DNA of 48,836 bases from Desulfobaccales bacterium (GTDB lineage: Bacteria; Desulfobacterota; Desulfobaccia; Desulfobaccales; 0-14-0-80-60-11): assembly GCA_041740935.1 (NCBI GenBank), contig JBGSLA010000019.1, positions 1-48,836 of the forward strand, read 5' to 3'. Shown one piece after another: positions 5,338-44,847 of the stretch. Position 1 is the stretch's first letter. Every line of letters starts with the position of its first letter. The position numbers and the translations under genes are program-made. Under the pieces are notes generated by a model that worked only from the letters and a program-made list of their open reading frames with translations, made no database searches and was not told the origin of the DNA.

Positions 5338-5412
<75 letters not shown>

Positions 5413-29112: not shown

Positions 29113-30038
29113 ATGGCTGCCGATTATCCCCGCATTTTTGACGCAGTGGGAGGCACCCCCCTGGTGCGCCTTATGGCCCTCACCCGGGGGCTGGGGGCCA
29201 CGGTGCTGGCCAAGCTCGAGTCCATGAATCCTCTGGGCAGCGTCAAGGACAGGATCGGCGCGGCCATGGTAAGGGCGGCCGAGGCTCAGGGGCTCATCCG
29301 CCCCGGGGGCCTGATGGTGGAGCCCACCAGCGGCAACACCGGCATCGCCCTGGCCTTTGTCTGCGCCGCCCGGGGCTACCGCCTGATCCTGACCATGCCC
29401 GAAACCATGAGCCTGGAGCGGCGCAAGCTCTTAAAACATCTGGGGGCCGAGGTGATCCTGACCCCGGCCGGCCAGGGGATGACCGGGGCCATAAACCGGG
29501 CCCGGCAGATCGCGGCTGAGCATCCCGGGGCCTATCTGCCGGACCAGTTCAACAATCCGGCCAATCCCGACATCCACCGGCGCACCACCGCAGCGGAAAT
29601 CTGGCGGGACACCAAAGGGGCGGTGGACATCCTGGTGGCCGGGGTGGGCACCGGCGGCACCATCACCGGGGTGGCGGAGGCCATCAAAGCCCGCAGCCCT
29701 CGTTTCGGGCCGTGGCAGTGGAGCCGGCCGCGTCAGCGGTGCTCTCCGGCGGCGCGGCCGGACCCCATAAAATCCAGGGGATCGGCGCGGGATTCGTGCC
29801 CGGCGTGCTGAATCGGGACATTCTGGATGAAATTATCACCGTGAGCGATGAGGAAGCTTTCGAGACCGCCCGGCAGGTGGCCCGGCAGGAAGGCATTCTG
29901 TGCGGCATCTCCTCGGGCGCGGCCGTCTGGGCCGCGTTGCAGGTGGCCCGCCGCCCGGAGAGTCAGGGAAAAATTATCGTGGCCATGCTCCCCAGCACCG
30001 GGGAGCGCTACCTGAGCACTGAGCTTTTTCTGTCCTGA
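29113..30038 (+). pseudogene. cysK: Cysteine synthase A (O-acetylserine sulfhydrylase) interrupted by a -1 frameshift near 29701
   Basis: Frame 1 (29113..) reads ...[20 protein letters not shown], then diverges. The conserved continuation [17 protein letters not shown]...[13 protein letters not shown] is in the frame of ORF 29712..30038. Only 2 nt (CG, 29701-02) separate the last good codon from the first good codon. Confidence 0.8.
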
Positions 30039-30520: not shown

Positions 30521-30572
30521 CCTGAGCAGTTTTTCTCCCCATCAGTAATGCGATAATTTTATTGACATATAA

Positions 30573-30586
30573 TCGAATATCCGGTT
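30573..30586. promoter_or_regulatory. Operator-like box TCGAATATCCGGTT downstream of a TTGACA -35 (30562-67)
   Basis: One of six or more copies of CCG-WWTAW-CCGGTT found in promoter regions between 30.5 and 41.4 kb. Confidence 0.5.
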
Positions 30587-30684
30587 AAAAACATCTAAGC
30601 GGAAACGGTTGGCAAGACTCCAGGCTCCCTTATCCGGCGCCGGGGTCTAAACCGGAGTGAATTTTTTACCAGGAGGTTTTTTTC

Positions 30685-31119
30685 ATGTCAGAGGAATGTT
30701 GCGGCTCCACTGTTCCCATCATGATTTTGGCTTGCGCGGGGGGCTCCAACGTCGGGCAGCTCTCTAATCAGGCCGCGGTGGAACTCACCCAGGAGGGTTT
30801 CGGCAGATTATTTTGCCTGGCGGGCATCGGCGCCCAGCTGATCGGCTTCATCCAATCCGCCCGGGATATTCCCCAGTTAGTGGTGATCGACGGCTGTGAG
30901 GTGGCCTGCGCCAAGGGGGTCCTGGAGCAGGCCGGAGTGCCGGTGCGGGGCTATTTGTTGATCACCGACCTCGGTATTGAGAAAAATAAAGATCTTTCCC
31001 CGGCCCCGGCGGAGGTGAACCGGGTCAAACAGGCGATCCGGGACCTGTGCGGTTCGTCTGCTGCGGGAGGGACCGCGGCCTCGGGGGGTGGCTGCGGCTG
31101 CAGTTGCACGCTCAAATAA
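30685..31119 (+). CDS. DGC-domain putative zinc/metal-binding protein
   Basis: 144 aa. The VVIDGCEVAC core is the DGC motif. Cys-rich termini MSEECCGS and GGGCGCSCTLK. Confidence 0.7.
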   Translation: MSEECCGSTVPIMILACAGGSNVGQLSNQAAVELTQEGFGRLFCLAGIGAQLIGFIQSARDIPQLVVIDGCEVACAKGVLEQAGVPVRGYLLITDLGIEKNKDLSPAPAEVNRVKQAIRDLCGSSAAGGTAASGGGCGCSCTLK

Positions 31120-31269
31120 GCCCTCCGGGCTTCGCCGGACAGGGCGCGTTTGGCAAAACCGGCTTGGCTGAGCGCCCGGCAAGCAAGGCTGTCTGTGGGG
31201 CCTCAAGGGCTGGTGGTCTCCCCGCGTCGGCAACGATTCACCCCATCTCTGAAGATGGAGGGTTTTACC

Positions 31270-31479
31270 ATGCTGAAAGAAAAAACCGTCATCACTCTTC
31301 ATCCGGAGGATATTTTCCGACTCGATGCCATCCTGCTGGACGAAGACAAGGACGCGGCCCTGGATTTCCTGGCCACCCTCAAGAAAAAGGCGGATGCCGC
31401 CAGCAAGCCTCATTGCCGCCCGGTTTTTGAACTGGAACGGGGCAAAACGCCGGAATTTATCACCAAGCGGCTCGATTGA
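31270..31479 (+). CDS. Small protein of unknown function (69 aa), paralog of 32392..32553
   Basis: ATG follows a GGAGGG RBS. KTVITLHPEDIFRLDAILLDEDKDAALDFLATLKKK aligns with the 53-aa ORF about 1.1 kb downstream. Confidence 0.55.
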   Translation: MLKEKTVITLHPEDIFRLDAILLDEDKDAALDFLATLKKKADAASKPHCRPVFELERGKTPEFITKRLD

Positions 31480-31491
31480 AAGGAGAGTAAC

Positions 31492-31554
31492 ATGTTGAAA
31501 AAATTAGGCTTATGCCTGTGTATCGGCGGACTTTGCTTCGTTTACGGCTGCTGA
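31492..31554 (+). CDS. Cys-rich 20-codon mini-ORF MLKKLGLCLCIGGLCFVYGC (signal-peptide/lipobox-like) ending at TGA
   Basis: Strong AAGGAGAG RBS 5 nt upstream. Five Cys in 20 residues. The same frame stays open for 37 more codons after the TGA, as far as TAA 31666-68. Confidence 0.3.
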   Translation: MLKKLGLCLCIGGLCFVYGC

Positions 31555-31702
31555 GGCGGAGCCCAGGGACTGCGGTCCAGCAGCCCCCAATTACCGGTTC
31601 CGGCGGATTCGCAGGTGGACCACGGGGTCTCCGGCTTGCGGATGTGCTCCCAGAAAATTGCCGGCTAACATGAGAGGATTTTGCAAAAGGGGTTCATGCT
31701 GG

Positions 31703-31770
31703 CATCCTGAACGAAGTGAAGGATCTCAAACCTTTGAAAATACGAGATTCTTCGCTATGCTCAGAATGAC
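31703..31770. repeat. Long imperfect hairpin repeat (CATCCTGAACGAAGTGAAGGATCTC ... GAGATTCTTCGCTATGCTCAGAATGAC)
   Basis: The arms at 31703-31727 and 31744-31770 pair at about 22 of 25 positions if G-U pairs are allowed. This sequence type is seen widely as an intergenic repeat. Confidence 0.7.
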
Positions 31771-31874
31771 AACTCTCGCCATACCAAGTTTGGCAAACGG
31801 CTCATGAGATTGGAGTTCATCAACGACCGGCCCGCCGCGGACCAGGGTTGATGAAATTCTTCAAGGGGATCGCC

Positions 31875-32345
31875 ATGATTCGCACCATTCTGTGGCCTAC
31901 CGATTTATCCAGGAATTCGCTGAAAGCTGCCAGGCAGGTGGTTTCCCTGGCGGAAAAGTATCAGGCCAAAATCATCATGCTGTATGTGGGCACGGATTTG
32001 ACGGCATTTTGGGGCGGCTATGCCCATGAACCCGGCGAACATCATTTGAAGCATTTTCAGGAGTGGGAGTTGAAGCGGGCGCAAGATAAAATGAAGACCA
32101 TCTGTGAAAACGACCTGAAAGCCTGCCCCGACCTGGACATTAAGCTGGTTCAGGGCGACGCCGCCGTTGAAATTCTTAAGGCGATAGAAACCGAGAAGGC
32201 CGACCTGGTGGTGATCACCACCCATGGGCGCGGCCACGAGGAAATCGATCAGAAAGGCGCGGTTTTCGGGAGCGTGGCCGAGAAGGTCATTCGCACCTCG
32301 CCGGTGCCGGTCCACCTGGTGAATCCCTATAAAGTGGAAAAATAA
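31875..32345 (+). CDS. Universal stress protein (UspA family)
   Basis: MIRTILWPTDLS... and VVITTHGRG...GSVAEKVIRTSPVPVHLV are typical USP blocks. I prefer the ATG at 31875 over the TTG at 31848. Confidence 0.8.
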   Translation: MIRTILWPTDLSRNSLKAARQVVSLAEKYQAKIIMLYVGTDLTAFWGGYAHEPGEHHLKHFQEWELKRAQDKMKTICENDLKACPDLDIKLVQGDAAVEILKAIETEKADLVVITTHGRGHEEIDQKGAVFGSVAEKVIRTSPVPVHLVNPYKVEK

Positions 32346-32391
32346 TGCCGGCAAACGCCAGCCGGCGCAGAATCACCCATGAGTTTCCCTT

Positions 32392-32553
32392 ATGAGCAAA
32401 ACCATTGTATTGACCATCACCCAGGAAGACTGGCTGCGGATCAAGGCCGCGGTAATGGACCGGGATGGAGAGGAGGCCCTGCGGCTCTTGAAGCAGATGG
32501 TCAAACGCCTCGAACAACAGGAAGCCAAAGGGCTTAAATCCCACCTGGGCTGA
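32392..32553 (+). CDS. Small protein of unknown function (53 aa), paralog of 31270..31479
   Basis: Not in the ORF track because it is under 60 aa. Reads MSKTIVLTITQEDWLRIKAAVMDRDGEEALRLLKQMVKRLEQQEAKGLKSHLG. It shares the ED..R...A...D.D...AL..L pattern with the 69-aa ORF. Confidence 0.5.
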   Translation: MSKTIVLTITQEDWLRIKAAVMDRDGEEALRLLKQMVKRLEQQEAKGLKSHLG

Positions 32554-32700
32554 CCGGCACGGGATTACCCCCCTTTTCCTGGCCGGTCAGGCCCTCCCGC
32601 CCGTTCACCCTGGCGGCTGCTCCGAGGAGGAGGACGTCCTCCAGGACGGCCGCCCAACCCGCCTGCCGATGGTGCAAAAAATCCCCCCGGCTGACTTCCA

Positions 32701-33477
32701 TCAAATTTTTATCCCGAAATAGATCAAGATGTATTTCAGGGAGACATACAAAAACAACAGCCCGAACAGGGCCTTGAGGATATGGGGTTTGATTTTGGCC
32801 ACCAGTTTGGCCCCGAAGATGGCGCCGATCAGGGCTCCCACCCCCAGGACGGCGGCCGCCGGCACATCCACCACCTGCTCGTAAAACTTGAAAATCGCTC
32901 CCACCAGGGCCATCCAGACAAACGCGGCCATGGAGGTGCCGATGACCAGTTTGACGGGCGCCTTGAAAAAATAAATGTACGAGGGCACCAGGGCGTAGCC
33001 CCCGCCCAGGCCGATGATGCCGGTGAGCGCGCCGATGGCCGAACCCAGGACCGTTTTGGACAAGGGCTTGCCGGGAATCCCGGCGCCCGCGGCGGTCGGC
33101 GGTCCCTTCACCAGCAAACCTTCATAGAGCATCCGCAGGGACACCACGATGAAGGCCAGGCCGATGATGAGGTCGATGAGCGCGCCATAGGGCATCAGGT
33201 AGTGGAAGACAATGGACCCGATAATCACCCCCAGGATGCCGCTGTAGCCGGTGAGCAGGGCGGTGTCCGTATCCACGTTTTTCATGCGCCAATGCTGAAA
33301 GGCCCCCGAGGCGGCAGTGAAGACCACCGCGGTGAGGGTGGTGCCCACCGCCAGGGCGGGGTTGAAGTCGAAGCCGAAGCGAATGACCGGCATCATCAGG
33401 GCACAGCCGCCGGTGCCTAACAACCCTCCCACCACCCCGGCCAGGAGGCCGGTGATAAAATATATGGCGTATAACAT
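32701..33477 (-). CDS. TauE/SafE-family sulfite/anion exporter-like membrane protein
   Basis: 258 aa with about 8 TM segments. Contains GLLAGVVGGLLGTGGCALMMP and a repeated GIIGLGGG motif. Confidence 0.8.
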   Translation of the reverse strand: MLYAIYFITGLLAGVVGGLLGTGGCALMMPVIRFGFDFNPALAVGTTLTAVVFTAASGAFQHWRMKNVDTDTALLTGYSGILGVIIGSIVFHYLMPYGALIDLIIGLAFIVVSLRMLYEGLLVKGPPTAAGAGIPGKPLSKTVLGSAIGALTGIIGLGGGYALVPSYIYFFKAPVKLVIGTSMAAFVWMALVGAIFKFYEQVVDVPAAAVLGVGALIGAIFGAKLVAKIKPHILKALFGLLFLYVSLKYILIYFGIKI

Positions 33478-33528
33478 AGGGCCAAAGCTCCTTATGATTT
33501 AAATTGAACTTATGATTACAATTTAAAT

Positions 33529-33542
33529 CCGAATAACCGGTT
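33529..33542. promoter_or_regulatory. Operator-like box CCGAATAACCGGTT within the TauE promoter spacer
   Basis: The minus strand reads TTGAAA-AACCGGTTATTCGGATT-TAAATT, upstream of ATG 33477. Confidence 0.5.
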
Positions 33543-33608
33543 TTTCAAGTATCATTTTTTCATTTTTTTCCTTTGCCTGGTAAGGGCCAGGCACCTGTCA
33601 TCAAAGCT

Positions 33609-36600
33609 TTACCTTCCTTTCAGGTAAGCCGAGATGCCCCCCGCCGAGACCTTGGGATAACCCCCAGGCTTTCCGGAGCGGGTGAACATCACATAGAGAA
33701 TGGGGCAGAGATACAATGCTACAAAGATCCCCAGGGCCAGGCCGCCGATGGCCGAGGCAGCCATGGGCTGAAGCATCTCGCCCCCTTCCTCCAGGTTGAG
33801 GGCCAGGGGGATGAAGCCGAAAATCACCGCCAGGGCGATCATCAGCCGGGGGCGCAAACGGATTTTGGCAGCTTCGATGACGGCGTCCAGGGGGGACAAA
33901 TGCCGCTCCCGGCGCAAATCCTCCGCAAAGGTGATGAGGAGCACCCCTTCGTTGACTTTGGCGGCCACCACGATGAGCACCCCGATGATCACCGTGGCCC
34001 CCAGAGGCAAATTGGTGATATACAGGGCATACACCATACCCGCCAGACAGAAGGGCACACAGGACAGGATGACCGCGGGCAGGCGCAGGCTGTTGAACTG
34101 CACCGCCAGCACCACGAAGGCAAAGAACAGCGCAAAGCCCAGGATAAAGATCACCGAGCGCTGCATCTCCGCCATCATCTGGGCCTGGCCGCCATAGGAG
34201 ATTTCGTAGCCCACCGGCAGAGTCATCTTGCCCACGGCCGCTTTCAGTTCGCCCAGAGCCTGGCCCACGCTCACGCCACTGGCGTCCCCCCGGACGATGA
34301 CCTCTTTCACCTGATCCTCCCGGGCGATTTCCACCGGACCCACCGCCGGGATCACCCGGGCCACGTCCTTGAGGCGCAGGTAGCCTCCCTGATTGCAGTT
34401 CAGCACCAGGTTTTCCACTTCCTGTTTGGAAGTAAAATGCTGTTCCGGGATCATTACCCGGATGTTGTAAAAATAGTCGCCGTCCCGATAGCGGGTGGCC
34501 ACCTGGCCGCTGATCAGGGAGCGCACCGAGGAGGTCACATCCACCACAGAAATCCCCAGGTCCGCGGCCCGGACCCGGTCCACCTCCACCCGGTACTCGG
34601 GTTTGGTCATGTCCATGGACACGTAGATATTGGCGAAGTGGGCCAGCCTGCTCATGGACTCGGAGGTCTGGCGGGCCAGATCGAAGAGTTGGCTTAACTC
34701 CTGTCCTTTGATCTTGACCTCGATGTCCGCCTCTCCCAGTTTGCGGATGCCCTTCATCGGCGCCTGCATGACCATGGGCTTGGCCCCGGGCCCGGCGAGG
34801 GGAGCCAGGGTCTTTTTCAGTTGCGCGACATATTCCCTGGTGCCGATCTTCCGGACGTGGCGCGGCGCCAACTGGATGTCCACCTGGCCCTCGTTGGCGA
34901 TTTCATAGGTGGCCAGCCCCCAGACCTTGCCGCCCGCCATGGTGACATAGCTTTCCACCAGGGGGTCGCCCTGGAGTTTTTTCTCCACCTGGGCCAGAAT
35001 CTGGTTGGTTTCGGTGAGGGCCGCGCCGGTGGGCAGTTTGACCTTCACCATGATCCGACCGTCATCCATGCGGGGCAAAAACTCGCTCCCCAGCCAGGGG
35101 AAGAGGGCGACGGCGCCCAAAAGAATGAGGACAAAGCCCCCGAATACCAGTTTCCGACGGTAAAGGCTCACCTTGAGGAAACTTACATACCATTCCGTCA
35201 CCTGACGTAACAGCCGGGCAAAGCGACCCTCCCCGTGGTGGCCGCCGCCCTCGCGGCCCACGATGATGGCGGTGAGCATGGGGGTGAGGGTGACGGCCAG
35301 GGCCAGGCTCACCAACACCACCCCGGCGATCACCAGGATAAGCTCCCGGAAAAGCAGGCTGGTCAGGCCCGGCACCAGGAGGAAGGGCAAAAACAGGGCC
35401 AGGAAGGAGAGGGTGGCGGCCAGGATGGCCGGCCCCACCTCCCGGGTGCCCCGTTCCGCCAGGGAAACGCCGTCCTCCTGGGGATGCAGTTGGCGCAGCC
35501 GGGTGATATTTTCCAGCACCACGATGGAGTTGTCCAACACCACCCCGATGGCCACCACCAGGCCGCCCAGGGAAAAGATGTTCAGGGAGAAGTCTCCCAG
35601 CTTCATGAGGGAGAAGTTAATGATGAGGGTGATGGGCAGGGCCAGCAGGAGCACCCAGACATGGCGCCAACTTCCCAGGAAGAGGTAAATGATCAGGATC
35701 ACCAGCACCGCGGCCTCCACCGCGGCGTTGCGCACCCCGTTCAAGGCGGCGGAGACATAGTCCGCCTGGTTTTCCACCATACCCAGCTTGACGCCGGCGG
35801 GTATGGAGGGCATGAGTTGATCGATTCTTTTGGTCACCGCCCGGGCCACTTCCACGGTGTTGGCGTCCGCCTGCTTAAGGACGCTCAACTTGACCGCGGG
35901 TTTCCCACCCAGGTTGGTGATGACCCGCACCTCCTCGTGGGCGTCCTCCACCTGAGCCACGTCTTTGAGATAAATCTTGCCGGGGCCGCCGTTGGCCAGG
36001 ACCACCTTGCGGATGTCATCCAGGCTGCGGTACTCCCCCATGGTGCGGGCGATGACTTCCCGGCGGCCCACCGTCAGCCGGCCGCCGAATTGTTCGAGTT
36101 TTTCTTCCGAAAGCCTTTTCATCACCGCCGGCAGGGTGAGGCCGTATTTTTCCACGGCATTGGGGTCCAGATGCACCCGGATTTCCCGTTTGAGGCCGCC
36201 GACGATGTCAGTGCCCGCCACCCCGGGAACCGCCTGCAATTGATACTGCAGCCAGTTCTCCGTCCAGGTGCGCAATTTGGTCAAATCCCAACTGTCCGAG
36301 CTGATGGTGAGCTGCACCACCGGCAACTGCGATGGGTCGGCCTTGAAGATCACCGGCGGGTCGATGTCCTTGGGGAGCTTGCGGGCCACCCGGGCCATAG
36401 CCGCCAGGGCATCCTGATAGGCCACGTCCACGTTGACCCCATATTTGAAATTGGCCAGGAGGGTATACATACCTTCAATGGAGGAGGATTCCAGATAATC
36501 CAGGTTGTCCACCATGGCCATCTGCTGCTCCAAGGGGTCGGCAATGTTGGTGCTGATCTCCTCCGGGGTGGCGCCCCGCCACCAAACGTGCACCTTGATC

Positions 36601-36731
36601 AGGGGATAGGTGATGTCCGGGAGAAAATTTACCGGCAGAAGCATAAAGCTGTAGATTCCCAGGACCACCAAAGCGATGGTGATGACCCAGGTGGCAATGC
36701 GCTGCCGCACGGCATACGTGGTTATCCTCAT
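33609..36731 (-). CDS. RND-family efflux transporter permease (AcrB/CzcA superfamily)
   Basis: 1040 aa. The 12-TM, two-large-loop layout and the N-terminal block IATWVITIALVVLGIYSFMLLPVNFLPDITYP are typical of this family. Confidence 0.9.
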   Translation of the reverse strand: MRITTYAVRQRIATWVITIALVVLGIYSFMLLPVNFLPDITYPLIKVHVWWRGATPEEISTNIADPLEQQMAMVDNLDYLESSSIEGMYTLLANFKYGVNVDVAYQDALAAMARVARKLPKDIDPPVIFKADPSQLPVVQLTISSDSWDLTKLRTWTENWLQYQLQAVPGVAGTDIVGGLKREIRVHLDPNAVEKYGLTLPAVMKRLSEEKLEQFGGRLTVGRREVIARTMGEYRSLDDIRKVVLANGGPGKIYLKDVAQVEDAHEEVRVITNLGGKPAVKLSVLKQADANTVEVARAVTKRIDQLMPSIPAGVKLGMVENQADYVSAALNGVRNAAVEAAVLVILIIYLFLGSWRHVWVLLLALPITLIINFSLMKLGDFSLNIFSLGGLVVAIGVVLDNSIVVLENITRLRQLHPQEDGVSLAERGTREVGPAILAATLSFLALFLPFLLVPGLTSLLFRELILVIAGVVLVSLALAVTLTPMLTAIIVGREGGGHHGEGRFARLLRQVTEWYVSFLKVSLYRRKLVFGGFVLILLGAVALFPWLGSEFLPRMDDGRIMVKVKLPTGAALTETNQILAQVEKKLQGDPLVESYVTMAGGKVWGLATYEIANEGQVDIQLAPRHVRKIGTREYVAQLKKTLAPLAGPGAKPMVMQAPMKGIRKLGEADIEVKIKGQELSQLFDLARQTSESMSRLAHFANIYVSMDMTKPEYRVEVDRVRAADLGISVVDVTSSVRSLISGQVATRYRDGDYFYNIRVMIPEQHFTSKQEVENLVLNCNQGGYLRLKDVARVIPAVGPVEIAREDQVKEVIVRGDASGVSVGQALGELKAAVGKMTLPVGYEISYGGQAQMMAEMQRSVIFILGFALFFAFVVLAVQFNSLRLPAVILSCVPFCLAGMVYALYITNLPLGATVIIGVLIVVAAKVNEGVLLITFAEDLRRERHLSPLDAVIEAAKIRLRPRLMIALAVIFGFIPLALNLEEGGEMLQPMAASAIGGLALGIFVALYLCPILYVMFTRSGKPGGYPKVSAGGISAYLKGR

Positions 36732-37768
36732 TTGCCTTCTCCTTGGACCCTCACTTCCATGCCCTCTTGCAGTTTTTCATTGCCGGCGGTGACCACCGTT
36801 TCCCCCGGCTGAATGCCGGAGATGATCTGCACCCGGCCTTCGGCCTCCAGGCCGGTTTGCACCACCCGGCGCTGAACTTTGCCGTCTTGAAGGATATACG
36901 CCAGCTTCTCACCGTTAGGCATCACCAGCACCGCATCGCCTGGGACGGTCAGCGCCTCGGCTTGGCCCGGCAAAGTTAACTTGAGGCGGGCGAACATCCC
37001 GGGAATCAGGGCCACCGGCGCCTTCAAGGTTACTTCCGTAGTGCGGGTGCGCATGCGGGTATCCAGGTCCGGGTACACCAGGCTGACTTTGCCCTCAAAG
37101 GTCTTGTCCGGATAGGCGTCCAGTTGGACTGTGACAGGGGTGCCTTTGAGGACCTCGATAGCCTGGGCCTCAGGCACGGCCAGACGGATTACCAGGCTGT
37201 GGGGATCGTACATTTCCACCAGGGGGGCTCTCGGCGCCACAAAGTCGCCATCTTTAACCAGGACCTTGGAGACTACCCCATTCCAGGGAGCTTTCACTTC
37301 ATAGTCGCCGGCCAATTCCCGGGCCTTGGCCAGCAGGGCCCGGGCGCCCTGGTATCTGGCCTTGGCGGTGTCGAGCTGGGAGCCCGGCACGGCCCCGTTC
37401 TGCACCAGGATTTTTATGCGATTCAGTTCGGCTTCCTGTTCCTTCACCGACTCCGCCGCGGCGGTGACCTGGGCCGCGGCCGCGCCGGAGCGGCCGATGG
37501 CGATGAGACAATCGCCCTTTTTGACCAGATCACCTTCCCGGATTTTGCAGGGATGGACAGGTCCCTCACCTGGGGAGGCCAGGCGCGCCTGGCGGGTGGG
37601 GGTGGCGGTGCCCGTCAGGTCCAACGTTCGGAAGAGAGGCGCCATCTGAACCTGTTGTACGGCCACCACGGGGAGGGCCTTAGCTCCCTCCGGCGGTTTT
37701 CCCTGGGCATGGATCTGGCTGGCTCCGAGAGATGCTATCCCGAAGGCCAGCAGGCTGGTCAGAACCAT
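36728..37768 (-). CDS. RND efflux periplasmic adaptor (MFP/HlyD family)
   Basis: Signal peptide MVLTSLLAFGIASLGASQIHAQ from ATG 37768; the ORF-track start 37789 is a TTG. Contains lipoyl/barrel motifs. ATGA overlap with the RND gene. Confidence 0.85.
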   Translation of the reverse strand: MVLTSLLAFGIASLGASQIHAQGKPPEGAKALPVVAVQQVQMAPLFRTLDLTGTATPTRQARLASPGEGPVHPCKIREGDLVKKGDCLIAIGRSGAAAAQVTAAAESVKEQEAELNRIKILVQNGAVPGSQLDTAKARYQGARALLAKARELAGDYEVKAPWNGVVSKVLVKDGDFVAPRAPLVEMYDPHSLVIRLAVPEAQAIEVLKGTPVTVQLDAYPDKTFEGKVSLVYPDLDTRMRTRTTEVTLKAPVALIPGMFARLKLTLPGQAEALTVPGDAVLVMPNGEKLAYILQDGKVQRRVVQTGLEAEGRVQIISGIQPGETVVTAGNEKLQEGMEVRVQGEGK

Positions 37769-37992
37769 CCGGATTTTTCTGCAGGGCAATCTCCAGGGCC
37801 CGCTCCAGACCCAAAGCTCCGGGAAGAGCCTCGGCCTTGGTCGGAGCGGGTTGCGACGGGGCCGGTGGGGTTATGCCGGTGGCCTTGGCCGCGGGGACCG
37901 GTTGGAAAGGTGCGGTGGGTTGCACCAGGGCGCAAACCCGACAGCAAGAACAGGGTGACTGAGGCGAGGAATGTGAGACGAACAACCTTCAC
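37766..37992 (-). pseudogene. Remnant of a NodT/TolC-type outer-membrane factor lipoprotein gene (frameshifted, then truncated)
   Basis: GTG 37992 follows GGAAAGGAG and gives MKVVRLTFLASVTLFLLSG. Removing one T from GGTTTGCGC restores LLSGC (lipobox)-ALVQPTAPF...LGLERALEIALQKNPD, the canonical OMF N-terminus. That reading then runs straight into the MFP start. Confidence 0.6.
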
Positions 37993-38083
37993 GCGCGATG
38001 TTCTCCTTTCCTAAAAATTGACCTGGACTTCTTACGGATAGTCCGGCACACAGTCAGGCGGTTACTTTTCTGGGGGGGCATAT

Positions 38084-38644
38084 TCATCTGGTACCACCGC
38101 GCCAGCTTCGACCCTCTTTCGGGGCCATGAATTCCCCTCTTCTCTCGGGCTCTCCAAGTAGCCGCTGCTCCAACAGCTTCAGGTAAACTACTCTCTGCCC
38201 GGCTTGGAGATCCTTTTGGAACTCGAGGCAGAGGTGCACTGACTCCTCTTCCATTTTTGTTTGGAGGAAACTGACTTCCTGGATTTTCTTTTGAATATCC
38301 GGCCAGGAGGGAGAATCCTGTTTGAGAAGTTCCCAAAGTGCCCTCTGTCCCCGGGCCAGTTCCACCCGAAGGTCCTGCCGCCGCTTCTGGTGTTCGGGCA
38401 TCAGGCTCCGCAATTGTCGGCACTGCTCGGGTTTAAGGGGCAAGGCCCGGCAAAGCTCCTGCAGCGTCAGGGGCGGCCCGGCTGATCGATGGTCGGCGCC
38501 GCTATAGTCTTGCCGGCGAAAGTAAGCCAGGGCGCCGAAGCTCGCCAGATCGAGGGCGAAGGAAAAGACCAGGAGATAGAACAGCCAGGAGCGTTTTCCG
38601 GGCTGGTCTCCTCCGGTCAAATTTTCAAGGTCTAAATTCCCCAC
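38084..38644 (-). CDS. Membrane-anchored periplasmic heavy-metal-sensor-like protein (Metal_resist/CpxP-Spy superfamily)
   Basis: 186 aa. One N-terminal TM segment (WLFYLLVFSFALDLASFGALAYF). LKPEQCRQLRSLMPEHQKRRQDLRVELARGQRALWELL resembles the LTxEQ helical repeats of this family. Confidence 0.6.
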   Translation of the reverse strand: MGNLDLENLTGGDQPGKRSWLFYLLVFSFALDLASFGALAYFRRQDYSGADHRSAGPPLTLQELCRALPLKPEQCRQLRSLMPEHQKRRQDLRVELARGQRALWELLKQDSPSWPDIQKKIQEVSFLQTKMEEESVHLCLEFQKDLQAGQRVVYLKLLEQRLLGEPERRGEFMAPKEGRSWRGGTR

Positions 38645-38692
38645 TTGCCGCCACCACCTGAAAAAATGCCCCTCAGGAATAGAGTTGTTGCT

Positions 38693-39187
38693 TCATGAGC
38701 GCGTCAACCAACGGTTAGCCGTTATGAGTGGAAGTTGTTCTGCACCTGCACTTGCAACTGTCGGCCCGATGTCTCTCTGAACGCCAGAGCGCCGTCCCTC
38801 GCCGGCGCCGGCGTCTTCCACCCTGGGACTGACGAGGAAGGGAAAGAGGAGGAGAACTGCGGCTACCACCGCATAAATAAGCGCGATCTTCCATCTTTCC
38901 CTGGAATTGGCGACCAGCCGGGCGAATAACCCCGGAATCATATTCCAGTGCAGCACGATATGCAGCACCAACAGGGCCAGCAACAGGAATCCCAGATACA
39001 GATGGACGGCGCCCCAATCATGGCGGTCCAGGCCGAGAAAGGAGAGATCCACCCGGCGGCCATATTTAATGGTGCTTTCCCGGCCGGGCAGCAGGACGTA
39101 CTTCATCAGGAAGCCCATCCCGGCGATGGCCGCCATGCAGAGAAACATCAGGGCGTCAATGGCAAAATTGAGTTTGGCTTTATTCAT
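38693..39187 (-). CDS. DUF4405-like membrane protein (cytochrome b-like)
   Basis: 164 aa. LNFAIDALMFLCMAAIAGMGFLMKYVL...HDWGAVHLYLGFLLLALLVLHIVLHW is typical of DUF4405. Confidence 0.65.
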   Translation of the reverse strand: MNKAKLNFAIDALMFLCMAAIAGMGFLMKYVLLPGRESTIKYGRRVDLSFLGLDRHDWGAVHLYLGFLLLALLVLHIVLHWNMIPGLFARLVANSRERWKIALIYAVVAAVLLLFPFLVSPRVEDAGAGEGRRSGVQRDIGPTVASAGAEQLPLITANRWLTRS

Positions 39188-39211
39188 GAAATTTCCCTTA
39201 TGGTTTTATAT

Positions 39212-39225
39212 GTGAATAACCGAAT
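39212..39225. promoter_or_regulatory. Operator-like box GTGAATAACCGAAT (degenerate copy) in the DUF4405 promoter
   Basis: The minus strand reads TTCAGT-AATTCGGTTATTCACAT-ATAAAA, upstream of ATG 39187. Confidence 0.4.
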
Positions 39226-39374
39226 TACTGAATATATAACAACGCAAATTTGCTAAATCGGCGGTCTTGAGTCAACATTTTTGAAATTTCATTGTACTTA
39301 GCGCCTTACCCTGCACCGGCAACCTGTTGTTTAACCCCCGTGGTCCCAAAAACGGTGCCTAATGTGGACTTTTG

Positions 39375-39406
39375 ATAAAAGGGTCGGCCACTACCCCGGC
39401 CGACCC
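39375..39406 (-). terminator. Rho-independent terminator after the 39443..39904 gene
   Basis: The minus strand reads GGGTCGGCC-GGGGTAGT-GGCCGACCC followed by TTTTATCAAAAG. Confidence 0.7.
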
Positions 39407-39442
39407 TGATGCCGCGCCTATTTCATTAAGTTGTTAGACCGA

Positions 39443-39904
39443 TTATCGTTGACCCTGGCCGGCCCAGGCCGGCGCCCCGTTGGTGTCCCGCAGCTTTAGG
39501 TCTTGGCCGCCTTTCTTCACTGCCGCGGCAATGATGGTAGGTTTACCCTCATAGGTAATCCGGGAGCCGGTAACCTCTACCTTATCGCCGGAGGCGATGG
39601 TCACGGCTTGTTTTTCCACATACCAGCTGGGGCCTAAATGGACCGGGATGGTCTCTTTGTCGGTCTTGAGGGTGAAATGCACCCCGTAAGACATTTTCTT
39701 TTCGGGGGTGAATTTCTCCAGGCTTACTACTGCGCCGCTCAGGGTTTCCACGGTTTTCGGATTGTACATCCGGCTGTAGGGATCGCCGGCGCCCCAGCCG
39801 GCGCCCTGTCCGCCTCCCGGCCCCATGCCGGGCTGGGCCCAGATACCGTTTGCCAGGATCAGGCCGAGAAGGCCTACCAAAGCCACCATGACGAGTTTTT
39901 TCAT
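39443..39904 (-). CDS. Secreted protein of unknown function (Gly-rich N-region, beta-rich OB-like C-domain)
   Basis: 153 aa. Signal peptide MKKLVMVALVGLLGLILANGIWA, then GMGPGGGQGAGWGAG, then VHLGPSWYVEKQAVTIASGDKVEVTGS. It has its own terminator. Confidence 0.7.
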   Translation of the reverse strand: MKKLVMVALVGLLGLILANGIWAQPGMGPGGGQGAGWGAGDPYSRMYNPKTVETLSGAVVSLEKFTPEKKMSYGVHFTLKTDKETIPVHLGPSWYVEKQAVTIASGDKVEVTGSRITYEGKPTIIAAAVKKGGQDLKLRDTNGAPAWAGQGQR

Positions 39905-40056
39905 GTTAGTTCCTCCATTGGTTGGGTTAATGAAAGGATGCTGCCGATCTGCCCAAACCCCTTAGGCCCCCTCCCAGCCCCGGCGGTGGGGCTGGGAGAG
40001 GCAGGGGGAGGGGGTTGAGGAAAGCCATACGGGGGGCTTAAACCCCCTCTGCAAGG

Positions 40057-40506
40057 TTACCAGCCGCGGCGTCCGCCCATGGCCAGGCCCCGGCCCTTGC
40101 CGCAGCCGGCGCCGCGCCCCAGGCCCATGCCGGCTTGGGGGCAGAGCTTTTGGACCTGAGACTGCAACGCGGTGCGCTTGCCCTGGAGCTGATCTCTCAA
40201 GGCGTTGACTTCTTGCTGTTTGGCCTGAAGCTGATTTTGATCAGGGGTCCCGGACCGCCACAAGGCCGCTAACTCGGTCCTCTTGACCATCATCTGTTTG
40301 CGCAGCTCGGCGGTGTCGTTGGCAAACTTCTGTTTGAGATCAAAGACCTGGCCGGCCTGCTCCGGGGTGAGATTAGCGCCGGCGCCCCGGTTGCCGCCCC
40401 GGCCCATGGGTCCGGCCCAGGCTGAATCGGCCGTCAGCAGTCCGAGCCCCACGATGGCCAGCAGCGCCAGGAGCAAACCGTTTCTGAGAATTACCTTGCC
40501 AATCAT
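40057..40506 (-). CDS. Periplasmic Spy/CpxP/ZraP-family protein
   Basis: ATG 40506 lies 7 nt after GGAGG. Signal peptide ...ADSAWA. LTPEQAGQVFDLKQKF...TELAALW...QLQAKQQEVNALRDQL helical repeats. Gly/Arg-rich tail. Confidence 0.7.
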   Translation of the reverse strand: MIGKVILRNGLLLALLAIVGLGLLTADSAWAGPMGRGGNRGAGANLTPEQAGQVFDLKQKFANDTAELRKQMMVKRTELAALWRSGTPDQNQLQAKQQEVNALRDQLQGKRTALQSQVQKLCPQAGMGLGRGAGCGKGRGLAMGGRRGW

Positions 40507-40535
40507 GTCTGAATCCTCCATTTCATTTTATATTA

Positions 40536-40549
40536 CCGTTTATCCGGTT
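40536..40549. promoter_or_regulatory. Operator-like box CCGTTTATCCGGTT in the Spy-like gene promoter spacer
   Basis: The minus strand reads TTGAAA-CCGGATAAACGGTAATA-TAAAAT. The 14-mer is identical to the one in the arsR-1 promoter. Confidence 0.55.
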
Positions 40550-40602
40550 TCAAGAATATAAACCCCAGATAATTCCAAATCCGGCGCAAGATATTGCTTC
40601 GC

Positions 40603-41187
40603 TCAAATCTTTTTTAAAGAAGCGGCATACCCACAGAGGCCGTTTTCAAAGGCTTCCCGCCCCCACTTATAGCGCCGATAATGGGGCTGGAAGTCCAGTT
40701 CGTAGGATTCTCCTTCTTGCAAAGTCACATCCACTTCCTTAAAGTATTGATCTCCCGGAAGGCCCAGGAAAATCTTGTGACGACCGGCCTTAAGCCGGAA
40801 ATTCCGGTCAAGGACATATTGCATACCCACGCCTTTTTCAGATGAGGTGCGGCCCTGGTCATAAACGGCCGGGCCATCTTCCCGCCTGCCTTGAACCTCA
40901 TAGGTTGTGGCTTGCCCGTCAATATTGACCACAAAGGTGTAGGTGGGTTGGCCGTGCGGCGAACTTTTGGCCTCCACCAGGTAATAGCCCGGGAGATGGG
41001 TTTTGAGGGAGGATTTCACCACCAGATCAGCGTACCCGGCGGGCGGCTGGCTTGTGCCCTTGACCTCCTGGAAGATATGGCTCGCCTGGCTCTGGGATTT
41101 ACTCCTGATCATCTCCATATTGGCCCCGCAACCGGCCAGGAGTATGGCTGGTAACAAACCTGACAGCAGTCTGAAGATGGTTTTCAT
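40603..41187 (-). CDS. Lipoprotein of unknown function
   Basis: ATG 41187 follows AGGAGG. MKTIFRLLSGLLPAILLAGC contains a lipobox. Beta-rich, with no family recognised. Confidence 0.7.
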   Translation of the reverse strand: MKTIFRLLSGLLPAILLAGCGANMEMIRSKSQSQASHIFQEVKGTSQPPAGYADLVVKSSLKTHLPGYYLVEAKSSPHGQPTYTFVVNIDGQATTYEVQGRREDGPAVYDQGRTSSEKGVGMQYVLDRNFRLKAGRHKIFLGLPGDQYFKEVDVTLQEGESYELDFQPHYRRYKWGREAFENGLCGYAASLKKI

Positions 41188-41253
41188 GTCGGCCTCCTTT
41201 CCTTTAAAAGGGAAAATCTCCACGGGAGAAAAAATGTGAAAATATTTTTGTAT

Positions 41254-41267
41254 GCGGTTATCCGGTT
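41254..41267. promoter_or_regulatory. Operator-like box GCGGTTATCCGGTT upstream of the lipoprotein gene
   Basis: Lies in the divergent 41188-41370 intergenic region, followed by AATATAAAC as at 40553-40561. Confidence 0.5.
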
Positions 41268-41335
41268 TTACTAATATAAACACCGCGACCCCCTGACTAC
41301 GGCGCGAGTCCGGTAATTTTTCCGAAAAAACCATC

Positions 41336-41364
41336 TTGACAATATCCGTTTATCCGGTTATAAA
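41336..41364 (+). promoter_or_regulatory. arsR-1 promoter TTGACA-17 nt-TATAAA with operator box CCGTTTATCCGGTT (41346-41359) in the spacer
   Basis: The -10 ends 7 nt before ATG 41371 and there is no Shine-Dalgarno sequence, so the transcript is predicted to be leaderless. Confidence 0.55.
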
Positions 41365-41370
41365 ATATCC

Positions 41371-41760
41371 ATGAAAAACGAAGCCCGACTCTTTAAGTCA
41401 CTGGGGGACGAGACCCGCCTGAGGATCCTCTGGCTCCTGATGCAAAAAGAGGAGTTATGCGTCTGCGATATCATGGGGGTCCTGGGGATCACCCAATCCA
41501 AGGCCTCCCGCCACCTGCGCTATCTCTTCCACCTGGGCTGGGTCACGGACCGACGGGACGGCTTGTGGATGAATTACCGCATCTCGGTGGCCCCGGGGAG
41601 CCAGCAGGATCGGCAACTGCGGTTGCTGGGCGAGTTTTTCCAGGACCACCCCGAAGCCCGATCCCTCAAAGAAAAGTTGGAAAAATGGATGGCGGCCAAG
41701 GAGTTGTCCGGTCAGAAGGCGGGGGGCACAGACGGAGAAATCCGCTGTTCTTGCAACTGA
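41371..41760 (+). CDS. arsR: ArsR/SmtB-family metalloregulator (ELCVCD type)
   Basis: 129 aa. LFKSLGDETRLRILWLLMQKEELCVCDIMGVLGITQSKASRHLRYL, plus an extra C-terminal CSC. Confidence 0.9.
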   Translation: MKNEARLFKSLGDETRLRILWLLMQKEELCVCDIMGVLGITQSKASRHLRYLFHLGWVTDRRDGLWMNYRISVAPGSQQDRQLRLLGEFFQDHPEARSLKEKLEKWMAAKELSGQKAGGTDGEIRCSCN

Positions 41761-41817
41761 CCGAAGCGCGGTTACTCCTGAGCCTCTGAGCACCCGTACG
41801 TCAGGGAAATTTATTGC

Positions 41818-41846
41818 TTGACTTTATTTGTTTAAACGATTATTAG
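41818..41846 (+). promoter_or_regulatory. arsR-2 promoter candidate TTGACT-17 nt-TATTAG
   Basis: The -10 ends about 7 nt before ATG 41854 and there is no SD, so this transcript is also predicted to be leaderless. Confidence 0.4.
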
Positions 41847-41853
41847 AATATCT

Positions 41854-42240
41854 ATGAGGCACGAGGCCAGAGTCTTTCGCTCCCTGGCGGATGAAACCCG
41901 CCTGAGCATGTTGTGTCTGCTGATGCAGCACGAAGAACTCTGCGTCTGCGATTTCATGGAGGTTTTGGAGATCACCCAGTCCAAGGCCTCCCGCCACCTG
42001 CGCTATTTGTATAACGCCGGCTGGGTTCATGACCGGCGGGAGGGCCTCAAGATGAAATATCGGTTGGGCGTCCCCCCCGGCCTTATGGGAGAAAAGCCCC
42101 TCCACCTGCTGTCGGAGATCATGACCTCTCACCCGGAAGCCCAGGCTTTAAGAGGTAAGCTCACCCGCTGGTTGGAGAACAAACCCCCAAGCAAGGGCCA
42201 GAAACAAGAGGTCAGGCCGGCAATGCGGGCCGGGGCCTGA
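41854..42240 (+). CDS. arsR: ArsR/SmtB-family metalloregulator, tandem paralog
   Basis: 128 aa. VFRSLADETRLSMLCLLMQHEELCVCDFMEVLEITQSKASRHLRYL. Confidence 0.9.
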   Translation: MRHEARVFRSLADETRLSMLCLLMQHEELCVCDFMEVLEITQSKASRHLRYLYNAGWVHDRREGLKMKYRLGVPPGLMGEKPLHLLSEIMTSHPEAQALRGKLTRWLENKPPSKGQKQEVRPAMRAGA

Positions 42241-42318
42241 TATATTTTTTACAAAGGTTTAATTGTTAAAACGAATATACGAATAATTATAAGAATATAT
42301 TTCAATTAGGGAATCACT

Positions 42319-43440
42319 ATGGCCACCGTTGCCAGGCGTTTGGGGTTCATCGAACGGTTTCTTACCCTGTGGATTTTTTTGACCATGGCGGGAGGGGTGG
42401 CCCTGGGGTATTTCTGGCCTGCCTTCACCCAGGTGTTGACCTCCTTTCAGGTGGGCACCACCAATATTCCCATCGCCATCGGCCTGATCCTGATGATGTA
42501 TCCGCCCCTGGCCAAGGTGCGCTATGAGGAGCTGCCCCGGGTTTTCAGGAATTTTAAGGTCCTGGGCCTGTCCCTGATCCAAAACTGGGTCATCGGCCCC
42601 ATCCTCATGTTCCTGCTGGCCATCATTTTTCTCCGGGGCTATCCGGAATACATGGTGGGGCTGATCATCATCGGCCTGGCCCGCTGCATCGCCATGGTCA
42701 TCGTCTGGAACGACCTGGCACAGGGCGACACGGAATACTGCGCGGGGCTCGTGGCCTTCAACTCCATCTTCCAGATGCTGTTTTTTTCCATTTACGCCTA
42801 TATTTTCGTCACCATCCTGCCCGCCTGGCTGGGCATCGCCGAAGGGCTGAGCGTCCAGGTGACCATCTGGCAGGTGGCCGAAAGTGTGCTCATTTATCTG
42901 GGAATCCCCTTTTTCGCCGGCATGTTCACCCGCTTTTTCCTGGTCAAACGCCGGGGGGTTCAGTGGTATGAAACCAAATTCATGCCCAAAATCAGCCCCA
43001 TCACCCTGATTGCGCTCTTGTTCACCATTGTGGTGATGTTCTCCCTCAAGGGGGAGTACATCGTGGAGCTGCCCCTGGACGTGGTGCGGATTGCCGTGCC
43101 CCTCGTGATTTATTTTTTGTTGATGTTTTTCATCACCTTTTACATGTCGGCCAAGGCGGGCGCGGGCTACCGCATCTCCACCACCCTGTCCTTCACCGCG
43201 GCCAGCAACAATTTCGAGCTGGCCATCGCCGTGGCCGTGGCCGTGTTCGGCCTCCAGTCGGGCGAGGCCTTCGCCGCGGTCATCGGCCCCCTGGTGGAAG
43301 TGCCGGTGCTCATCGGTTTGGTCAACGTGGCCCTGCGCTTCCAACAAAAATATTTCCCGCCCACGGTCTGCGCCCCTTGCAGCCTGGGGGGTGAGGTGGA
43401 ATTCCGGCCGGAGCCGACCTCGACTCCTGAACAAAACTGA
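42319..43440 (+). CDS. acr3: ACR3-family arsenite efflux transporter
   Basis: 373 aa. [27 protein letters not shown] and the 10-TM BART-superfamily layout. Confidence 0.9.
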
Positions 43441-44460: not shown

Positions 44461-44847
44461 ATGCACATAAAACCAGGAACGATCATCGGGATGCTGGGGC
44501 TGCTGCTGGGAATTATCCTGCTCATTCAGCCGCTGGGCGCCGAGACCAAAAGCCCGTCCTCCCCCGCGGGCCGCCCGGCCGTGTATGAATTCGGGGCCAA
44601 GTACTGCGCCCCCTGTATCGAAATGCAAAAGGTTATGGCGGAATTGCAGGCCAGCCACGGCAGCCAGGTGGAATTTCGCATGGTTTACAGCGATGAACAC
44701 AAGGACCTCTTTCCCCAACACCAGATCATGCTGATCCCCACCCAGGTGTTTTTCGACGCCTCCGGCAAAGAGGTGGACCGGCATATCGGCGCGCTGAGCA
44801 AAGAAGAATTGCTCAAAAAACTTAAGGAATTAAAGCTCATCAACTAA
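44461..44847 (+). CDS. Exported/anchored thioredoxin-fold protein (CAPC active site)
   Basis: 128 aa. N-terminal hydrophobic segment. VYEFGAKYCAPCIEMQKV and the cis-Pro block MLIPTQVFFDASGKEV. Confidence 0.8.
   Translation: MHIKPGTIIGMLGLLLGIILLIQPLGAETKSPSSPAGRPAVYEFGAKYCAPCIEMQKVMAELQASHGSQVEFRMVYSDEHKDLFPQHQIMLIPTQVFFDASGKEVDRHIGALSKEELLKKLKELKLIN

Follow-up and report, generated by a model that had tools for sequence, protein, structure and literature searches.

Repression of ars operons by ArsR is textbook knowledge, and the periplasmic stress chaperones Spy, CpxP and ZraP are known to be under two-component control (CpxAR, BaeSR, ZraSR). Here we describe a recurrent promoter box in a 48,836-nt stretch of DNA from a Desulfobaccales bacterium (contig JBGSLA010000019.1 of assembly GCA_041740935.1; the whole stretch is hereinafter designated the window). 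The box lies in an island at 30.5-48.8 kb that encodes two ArsR/SmtB repressors, ArsR1 and ArsR2, and is predicted to be the operator of one or both. Derepression of ArsR by As(III) is an established model, summarised in PMC7965956, which also quotes the Busenlehner model of the ArsR/SmtB operator, an imperfect 12-2-12 inverted repeat. In Agrobacterium tumefaciens 5A, which has several ArsR paralogs, ArsR proteins control genes far beyond the ars operon (Rawle et al. 2021, PMC7965956). The extra targets identified there by RNA-seq comprise pho/pst/phn and many others, and the motifs are degenerate, lie mostly 100-150 nt upstream and do not fit the inverted-repeat model (PMC7965956).

Like the classical ars operons (E. 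coli R773 and chromosomal arsRBC; arsR-acr3-arsC), the island has an ELCVC winged-helix repressor with predicted autoregulation, an operator that overlaps its own promoter, and an arsenite pump, an arsenate reductase and arsP in cis. Unlike them, it has eight predicted operators in ~12 kb that would serve seven or more transcription units, on both strands; its two repressors are paralogs with the same recognition helix, and the arsR geometry is leaderless. The predicted operator, read as a 20-bp 8-4-8 site with the consensus ATAACCGG-TTAT-CCGGTTAT, would also differ from the described 12-2-12 or TCAT-N7-TTTG operators. Compared with A. tumefaciens 5A, the predicted targets outside ars are genes for envelope proteins, TauE and DGC, and the site is a conserved core-promoter palindrome, known from sequence alone. 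The metal sensors SmtB, CadC and CzrA have the same fold and are dimeric repressors acting on a promoter-overlapping inverted repeat, as is predicted here; the operator sequence and half-site spacing differ, and the genes in cis are ars genes, not cadA or czc. The α5 His/Asp site of these sensors was not seen in ArsR1, where this site was not looked at in detail. Like Spy, CpxP and ZraP, one product of the island is a 149-aa secreted Metal_resist-family protein; unlike them, it is predicted to be under cytoplasmic ArsR control rather than an envelope-sensing two-component system, and it is always paired with a secreted OB-fold protein with a MamS/MamX domain. As in ars clusters of other sulfate reducers with DGC-domain, thioredoxin-like and ArsP genes, for example that of P. 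mercurii ND132, where a DGC gene is reported in an arsR5-arsP-arsE operon (bioRxiv 10.1101/2022.10.17.512643), DGC is linked to arsR and arsP (locus L034 below). In contrast to that cluster, the DGC and TauE genes of the window are separate transcription units 8-11 kb from arsR and are tied to it only by the operator. What is new here is a defined operator, and that throughout the lineage the ars operon is coupled with an envelope arm and with a TauE/DGC module, both built from uncharacterised families.

The initial annotation of the window had noticed a 14-mer recurring upstream of six genes. All six copies are present where it placed them; the 14-mer is real and repeated, but constitutes only the right two-thirds of a 20-bp palindrome. 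The copies seemed to lie all on the plus strand because only one half of the palindrome had been read. A 20-bp position weight matrix (PWM) was built from 30 unique arsR and acr3 promoter sites of 13 related Desulfobaccales metagenome loci, with the sites of the window excluded. These sites define the 8-4-8 consensus given above, and pooling 61 unique sites from all loci gives the same consensus. The invariant skeleton is A3, C6 G7, T10 A11, C14 G15, T18 A19 (A..CG..TA..CG..TA). Derived from other genomes only, the PWM recovers eight promoter sites in the window, and the best-scoring strand varies from operator to operator:

41342..41361, plus strand: arsR1 operator (O-arsR1), ATATCCGTTTATCCGGTTAT, 32.4 bits
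30569..30588, plus strand: DGC operator (O-DGC), ATAATCGAATATCCGGTTAA, 25.1 bits
41250..41269, minus strand: lipoprotein operator (O-lipo), gene strand AAAACCGGATAACCGCATAC, 22.8 bits, 63 nt upstream of the lipoprotein ATG
33525..33544, minus strand: TauE operator (O-tauE), gene strand AAAACCGGTTATTCGGATTT, 20.0 bits
39208..39235, minus strand: DUF4405 operator (O-DUF4405), gene strand ATATTCAGTAATTCGGTTATTCACATAT, 17.3 and 17.1 bits in two overlapping registers 8 bp apart
40532..40551, minus strand: Spy/ZraP-like operator (O-spy), gene strand GAAACCGGATAAACGGTAAT, 17.3 bits
41824..41843, plus strand: arsR2 operator (O-arsR2), TTATTTGTTTAAACGATTAT, 15.9 bits, a variant with a degenerate left half
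42267..42286, plus strand: acr3 operator (O-acr3), TAAAACGAATATACGAATAA, 10.4 bits, the weakest copy

The arsR2 operator is absent from the initial annotation, and the acr3 site corresponds to a weak relative that it had listed. A second weak relative, proposed at about 38045-58 before an OMF/RND gene string, falls away, with no PWM score above 6 bits there. Scanning the whole 48.8 kb revealed no further site above 6 bits, with 0.17 matches above 10 bits expected under a whole-window Markov null. Under a null matched for AT-rich DNA, 0.13 patches with a match are expected and seven are observed; the remaining 42 AT-rich patches of the window have no match. The word CGNWTAWCCGGTT, with at most one mismatch, occurs six times in the window compared with 0.5 expected, a count reached in none of 100 shuffles. 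One match, at 7281-93, was set aside as a chance occurrence, being inside a long open reading frame (ORF; 6607-9075) and scoreless with the 20-bp matrix. In 401 kb of non-redundant related sequence, 75 of the 77 site clusters of at least 12 bits fall in AT-rich promoter patches. For comparing intergenic with coding DNA, a crude stop-to-stop coding mask was dropped as misleading, since open frames extend through promoters, and local GC content together with a Pfam-supported gene map took its place. An independent repeat finder recovers the box as two repeat families (D5 and D8). Neither the consensus ATAACCGGTTATCCGGTTAT nor its words have a match in the searchable literature, and a literature search for an ArsR regulon in delta-proteobacteria returned nothing matching.

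The position of the box relative to the core promoter is nearly uniform. Specifically, at six promoters (arsR1, arsR2, acr3, DGC, TauE and Spy-like) the start of the operator is within 0-2 nt of the 3' edge of a −35-like hexamer, and its far end falls in the −10 element. In the arsR1 promoter the operator directly follows the −35 hexamer TTGACA (41336-41) and overlaps the −10 hexamer TATAAA (41359-64), with the ATG at 41371; in the arsR2 promoter it lies between TTGACT (41818-23) and TATTAG (41841-46), with the ATG at 41854. At DGC, TTGACA (30562-67) and the operator are separated by one nucleotide, and at acr3 the operator lies between the hexamers TTGTTA and ATTATA. A promoter scanner independently called TTGAAA (33548-43) and TAAATT (33525-20) at TauE, and TTGAAA (40553-48) and TAAAAT (40530-25) at the Spy-like gene, each pair having a 17-nt spacer and enclosing the box. 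The initial annotation had assigned the box to the −35/−10 spacer at every strong site other than 30573-86. This stands for TauE, Spy-like and arsR1, and is ambiguous for the lipoprotein and DUF4405 genes; the site at 30573-86, in front of DGC, is no exception, for TTGACA directly precedes it as well.

A TATAT-rich element is situated just 5' of the operator at the lipoprotein and DUF4405 promoters. More generally, an element GTTTATATT or TTGTTATATAT lies immediately 5' of the operator at the Spy-like, lipoprotein, DUF4405 and second MamS/MamX promoters (TTGTTATATAT in the case of O-DUF4405) and is not present at the arsR and acr3 promoters. Its copies, in the window and in related loci (L numbers), are:

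window 40552-40563, 41270-41281 and 39236-39246: GTTTATATT/TTGTTATATAT element
L018 1078-1089: GTTTATATT/TTGTTATATAT element
L028 3815-3827: GTTTATATT/TTGTTATATAT element
L032 6889-6901: GTTTATATT/TTGTTATATAT element

This element may be an extended −10, in which case the operator would cover the transcription start at those promoters. Where the operator fills the −35/−10 spacer, a bound dimer would exclude RNA polymerase; this is the classical location for such steric blocking. Either placement, as read from the promoters, would imply repression. At both arsR1 and arsR2 the ATG lies 7 nt past the −10 hexamer without a Shine-Dalgarno sequence (window 41359-41373, 41841-41856), which suggests that the arsR mRNAs are leaderless; the −10-to-ATG spacing of arsR1 is kept in all orthologous loci (L001-L015).

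Conservation extends these observations to related genomes. A search with ArsR1 over 185,579 species genomes yielded 15 Desulfobaccales-type loci from metagenome-assembled genomes (MAGs), at 66-83% identity, and two more distant ones. In 15 of 15 loci the arsR promoter consists of TTGACA, (A/C)ATAWYCGNTTATCCGGTTAT, an A/T-rich stretch and the ATG, with the box at a fixed register after TTGACA. The related loci have a further box upstream of arsR2, or of what is left of a decayed arsR2, and a third upstream of acr3, where the orthologous promoters have boxes of 22-31 bits at the same place. The box is also kept at promoters outside the ars operon. TauE orthologs (82-89% identity) retain the spacer box in three neighbourhoods (L023/24, L025/26 and L027) with the register to the −35 unchanged; the scores are 14.3 bits in L023, 16.2 in L025 and 19.0 in L027. 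The lipoprotein ortholog in L018 (72% identical) has a box of 17.9 bits, with a MamS/MamX gene and an OMF gene downstream, and lipoprotein orthologs accompany MamS/MamX, OMF and RND genes in L018-L020. Spy-like orthologs have promoter boxes of 31.2 bits (L037), 20.4 bits (L029) and 12.8 bits (L032); the box is weak in L028, and in L030 the variant is shorter by 1 bp. MamS/MamX genes are boxed in L001, L005, L028, L032 and L037, the thioredoxin gene trx has its own box in L004, L032 and L037, the DGC box is kept in L001 (22.5 bits), and a box heads the DGC-containing string of L037. L032 has seven boxes in 10 kb and L037 eight in 11 kb; such multi-operator islands are typical of the lineage.

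The variant in the Spy-like promoter of L030 (4950-4990) is AAACCGGTTACCGG, in which the two CCGG cores are one bp closer than in the consensus, so that the PWM misses the site; it may be a decayed operator or one of altered spacing.

The gene order is shared along with the boxes. Two arms can be distinguished, [arsP-dsbD-trx-usp-acr3-arsR] and, divergent from it, [Spy-like - MamS/MamX - DUF4405 - Metal_resist - OEP - MFP - RND - TauE], and this layout recurs in L028, L029, L030, L032 and L037/L023. In L028, L029, L030, L032 and L037 the Spy-like gene is always followed by MamS/MamX and is divergent from arsR-acr3-usp-trx-dsbD-arsP. L037 and L023 are one contig and present the full order, arsR-acr3... 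on one side and Spy-like - MamS/MamX - DUF4405 - Metal_resist - OEP - MFP - RND - LGT - TauE on the other. The window from 32.7 to 48.8 kb is a syntenic, slightly rearranged copy of it, with the lipoprotein gene inserted, OEP deleted and the DGC string beside TauE. In all related loci acr3, arsP and arsC are in cis with arsR. The layout is lineage-wide in Desulfobaccales and no peculiarity of this genome. Loci of other lineages (L034 and L035) have common gene content and no box, which fits the different ArsR recognition helix in L034.

The two candidate regulators are encoded directly upstream of acr3:

41371..41760, plus strand: arsR1, encoding an ArsR/SmtB repressor (ELCVCD; recognition helix TQSKASRHLRYL; CSC at the C-terminus)
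41854..42240, plus strand: arsR2, paralog of arsR1 with the same ELCVCD and recognition helix, without a C-terminal CxC

Both products match HTH_5 (PF01022; 49 bits for arsR1 and 53 bits for arsR2, cut-off 22), and arsR1 also matches the NCBIfam model HTH_metalloreg (NF033788; 82.5 bits, cut-off 55). The paralogs are 61% identical (BLASTP E = 4e-50). The recognition helix TQSKASRHLRYL is identical in the two and, save for one Y-to-H change, invariant in the orthologs; because both helices are identical, ArsR1 and/or ArsR2 is the predicted binder. In L027 and L034 the ArsR genes are more distant and encode a different recognition helix. No box is found at their own promoters, and L034 has no box at all. 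The EELCVCD segment is present in both paralogs and all orthologs; its counterparts in the CadC alignment are Cys58/Cys60. R773 ArsR has a third Cys, Cys37, with no counterpart in ArsR1 or ArsR2. The closest solved structure to ArsR1 is that of CadC (1u2w), with an identical EELCVCDI segment. The alignment starts at CadC residue 33, so that, unlike CadC, ArsR1 lacks the N-terminal Cys arm of the α3N site, by which Cd/Pb sensing is defined; there is no Cys in ArsR1 residues 1-29. The BigR model (NF040642; BigR/SqrR persulfide sensors with an α2/α5 dithiol pair) scores 23.7 bits compared with a cut-off of 155. The C-terminal CxC is retained in ArsR1 orthologs (CSCN, CSCS, CQCS; window 41743-41757) and absent from ArsR2, and may be a second or alternative metalloid site.

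The arsR2 operator is a recurrent variant, TTRWTTGYTTAAACGRWTAT (TT(A/R)WTTGYTTAAACGRWTAT), kept at intact arsR2-type promoters in the window (41824-41843) and in four relatives:

L005 10425: arsR2-type variant box
L028 452: arsR2-type variant box
L029 4298: arsR2-type variant box
L037 5975: arsR2-type variant box

This variant could give the second repressor a different set-point, and ArsR1 and ArsR2 may respond to different inducers or bind with different affinity.

The motif has been observed, with its statistics, its place in the promoters and its retention at orthologous ones; from these we infer the identity of the binding protein, the inducer, the repression and the physiological logic as follows. 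The box is likely the operator of the ArsR/SmtB repressors encoded in the island itself (ArsR1 and/or ArsR2), which would be released by As(III) and control a multi-operon regulon. The initial annotation had favoured autoregulated ArsR control; the box in the arsR1 promoter of 15 loci, before arsR2 and acr3, and at orthologous non-ars promoters strongly supports that model, in which binding and co-induction are predictions. Without metalloid, ArsR dimers would sit on the palindromes and prevent about seven transcription units from being initiated; for the lipoprotein and DUF4405 genes they may act across the transcription start instead of the spacer. The Cys pair of ELCVCD in helix α3 would bind As(III) or Sb(III), a step to which the C-terminal CxC of ArsR1 may also contribute, and the repressor would be released. 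Derepression would then reach the arsR genes and the acr3-usp-trx-dsbD-arsP-arsC operon, the envelope arm (lipoprotein; ZraP/Spy-like protein and MamS/MamX; DUF4405 and Metal_resist, then MFP and RND), the TauE exporter and the DGC/small-protein string. The predicted outputs are efflux by Acr3 and ArsP, reduction by ArsC, a periplasmic thiol-redox relay in which secreted thioredoxin (Trx) works with CcdA/DsbD, a ZraP/Spy-like chaperone in the periplasm together with OB-fold partners, an RND pump, the TauE anion exporter, and the Cys-rich DGC protein with the small proteins. Such outputs would suit the chemistry of As(III), which attacks thiols and causes proteins to misfold: the regulon would provide efflux, repair of thiol redox state in the periplasm, and periplasmic chaperone or binding proteins.

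Several points weigh against this interpretation. The case is built on sequence comparison, and the organisms are uncultured MAGs. The site resembles an inverted repeat, though of 8-4-8 rather than the textbook 12-2-12 ArsR/SmtB shape, and has an internal 8-bp periodicity: a tandem of two CCGNTTAT units is about as good a description as the palindrome, with matches at a mean of 5.5 of 8 positions compared with 4.9 of 8. The acr3 site is the weakest in the window, the left half of the arsR2 site is degenerate, and the promoter hexamers of the lipoprotein and DUF4405 genes are ambiguous. No arsR lies within the 12 kb fetched around the boxed TauE of L023 and L025, so that the link to ArsR there is by motif similarity alone. 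In L027 the TauE box reaches 19 bits, yet the one ArsR-family gene seen at that locus has a different recognition helix. The identical helices of the two paralogs would weigh against singling out one regulator. Finally, the deletion of the OMF gene, described below, may leave part of the envelope arm of the window non-functional.

A wider version of the proposal is that ArsR governs, besides cytoplasmic efflux, a conserved envelope pathway, a previously undescribed periplasm-to-outside handling of arsenic or thio-arsenic in sulfidic anaerobes. Its members, from families to which no role in metalloid biology has been assigned, would be the ZraP-like chaperone, MamS/MamX, the cytochrome-b-like DUF4405 protein, Metal_resist, the lipoprotein, OMF-MFP-RND, TauE, and DGC with the small Cys-bearing proteins. 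We put this forward tentatively, as possible and rather doubtful.

A different signal could also act through the same operator and repressor, namely Sb(III), Cd, Zn, Pb, reactive sulfur or thio-arsenic, the envelope arm then being a metal or sulfur-stress system that happens to adjoin ars. Cation-metal stress typically involves Metal_resist/ZraP-like proteins and RND/MFP pumps; TauE is treated as a putative sulfite/thiosulfate exporter in sulfide-detoxification operons (PMC7315123), and rhodanese and MauE adjoin TauE in L027. Four Cys are conserved among the ArsR1 orthologs (the CVC pair and the C-terminal CxC), and the Cd/Pb/Zn sensor CadC, the nearest solved structure, has the same ELCVCD. 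We nevertheless consider such a signal unlikely, as the regulators are in cis with acr3, arsP and arsC at every locus, ArsR1 is without the Cys arm that completes the CadC metal site, and the BigR score is far below the cut-off.

It is very improbable that only the arsR and acr3 sites function and that the other boxes are non-functional, bound by an unlinked factor, or parts of duplicated promoter modules. The non-ars sites do score lower (17-25 bits, compared with 30-35 bits for arsR1 sites), and the Spy-like boxes of L028 and L030 are weak or contain an indel. In addition, the Spy-like and lipoprotein promoters are 83% alike over 30 nt, beyond the operator (family D5), which could reflect duplication. 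However, the boxes persist at orthologous promoters with diverged flanks and in different genomic contexts, their register to the −35 hexamer is unchanged, their invariant positions match those of the arsR sites, and neither a larger repeat nor a mobile element is reported by the repeat finder. Every site is located in an AT-rich patch, where TA-rich words are common, which might suggest that an AT-rich word with a CCGG core has recurred by chance in such intergenic DNA; this is effectively refuted by the AT-rich-matched null, the 42 empty patches and the derivation of the PWM from other genomes.

Two further origins of the repeated element were considered and rejected. For a mobile element or miniature inverted-repeat transposable element, the repeat finder gives only the short box families D5 and D8 and the arsR1/arsR2 paralogy (D1). 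As to structured RNAs or riboswitches in the leaders, the island has no Rfam match, and the only Rfam matches in the window are four tRNAs far away.

With the predicted ArsR regulon, an order of sulfate reducers and syntrophs that is uncultured but abundant in the environment gains an operator that is sharply defined and has phylogenetic support. Its regulatory context gives a testable function to the MamS/MamX OB-fold proteins, DUF4405, DGC (PF08859), the two small proteins, the lipoprotein and the TauE clade. It suggests that arsenic defence in these Gram-negative anaerobes extends beyond Acr3 to the envelope, with a chaperone, a thiol-redox relay and an RND pump, and the predicted operator/repressor pair could be a compact arsenite-responsive switch for anaerobes.

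The envelope arm of the window comprises the following features:

40603..41187, minus strand: lipoprotein, 194 aa, lipobox LLAGC; no Pfam, NCBIfam or PDB match
40057..40506, minus strand: Spy/CpxP/ZraP-like periplasmic protein, 149 aa; Pfam PF13801 (Metal_resist), 47 bits; start follows GGAGGA
39443..39904, minus strand: secreted MamS/MamX-domain protein; precomputed PF26390
38693-39187, minus strand: DUF4405 protein (Pfam)
38084-38644, minus strand: membrane-anchored Metal_resist protein (Pfam)
about 37767-37934, minus strand: OMF remnant, ~60 aa, 63% identity to the L032 OEP over its first 60 aligned residues
36728-37789, minus strand: MFP, intact (Pfam)
33609-36731, minus strand: RND, intact (Pfam)

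The Spy-like protein has ZraP-like Gly-rich ends and is below the ZraP equivalog level (NCBIfam NF008584, 52.3 bits compared with a cut-off of 200); only its Metal_resist match, at family level, exceeds the cut-off. The island (30.5-48.8 kb) yielded no gene for a sensor kinase or response regulator, and the window has a single sigma-54 activator, at 20383-22575; the Spy-like promoter is sigma-70-like (TTGAAA-17-TAAAAT) with the predicted ArsR box. The secreted protein that the initial annotation had called Gly-rich is indeed secreted and has a disordered Gly-rich N-terminal region; its identity is refined to MamS/MamX. Its core is a predicted OB fold (AlphaFold pLDDT, the per-residue model confidence, 86-95; Foldseek OB-fold matches). 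The names 'DNA-binding protein' and 'alanine racemase', given to homologs in some sources, look spurious for a secreted protein. The OMF/RND string had been described as decayed, which applies to the OMF, reduced to an N-terminal remnant, and not to RND and MFP, which are intact. In relatives OEP-MFP-RND is intact; since the OMF gene of the window is deleted but for the remnant, its RND pump is without a cognate OMF. Between the Spy-like and MamS/MamX genes there is a GC-rich inverted repeat, cccagccccggcggtggggctggg (39965-40015; kept in L019 820-870), which may act in attenuation within the operon or in RNA stability. In L003-L015, Metal_resist homologs that lie 2-3 kb upstream of arsR were discarded as candidate members: they belong to an ECF-type sigma/anti-sigma-like string (L008 ORF translations) with no box.

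The ars arm of the window, downstream of arsR2, contains:

42319-43440, plus strand: acr3 (Pfam SBF, 214 bits)
43474-44349, plus strand: tandem Usp (Pfam)
44461-44847, plus strand: secreted thioredoxin (Pfam)
44860-45555, plus strand: DsbD/CcdA (Pfam)
45955-46341, plus strand: 128-aa secreted protein, no family match in Pfam, NCBIfam or PDB sequence searches
46372-47784, plus strand: arsP (Pfam, 241 bits)
48222-48767, plus strand: LMW-PTP arsC (Pfam, 67 bits)

This order recurs in L001, L002, L008, L011, L012, L029, L030 and L032, and the right half of the island is a classical arsR-acr3-usp-trx-dsbD-arsP-arsC operon. The earlier view that the island does not follow a described ars layout therefore holds for the envelope arm only, since DGC and TauE also occur in ars clusters elsewhere.

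The TauE/DGC module lies at the other end of the island:

30685-31119, plus strand: DGC-domain Cys-rich protein (Pfam PF08859)
31270-31479, plus strand: small1, paralog of small2 (E = 1e-6)
31848-32345, plus strand: Usp (Pfam)
32392-32553, plus strand: small2, paralog of small1 (E = 1e-6)
32701..33477, minus strand: TauE/SafE-family anion exporter (Pfam PF01925, 153 bits)

TauE has >800 close homologs. Small1 and small2 have no match in Pfam, NCBIfam or PDB sequence searches and have conserved C-terminal motifs (KPHCRPVFE..RGK and GLKSHLG). The pair is always beside TauE, usually with DGC or ArsA-like ATPase genes (L025 6948-7440; L027 2923-3406), and DGC, small1, small2 and TauE are co-located in L025 and L027. 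TauE is within arsR-led operons in L012 and L034. The L034 string, arsR-arsP-TauE-Trx3-DGC-...-acr3, has TauE and DGC but no box, so both are ars-cluster genes independently of the operator. Directly after small1, behind GGAG, a 20-codon ORF, MLKKLGLCLCIGGLCFVYGC (31493-31555, plus strand), resembles a signal peptide with a lipobox.

Outside the island, a cysK-like PALP gene at 29113-30038 (plus strand) is split into two overlapping frames, 29113-29811 (Pfam positions 1-184) and 29712-30038 (Pfam positions 189-294), which is a frameshift or sequencing error. Four tRNA genes are located at 94-370, 243-296 and 5338-5512, with a short tandem repeat, ggactttggac, between the first two.

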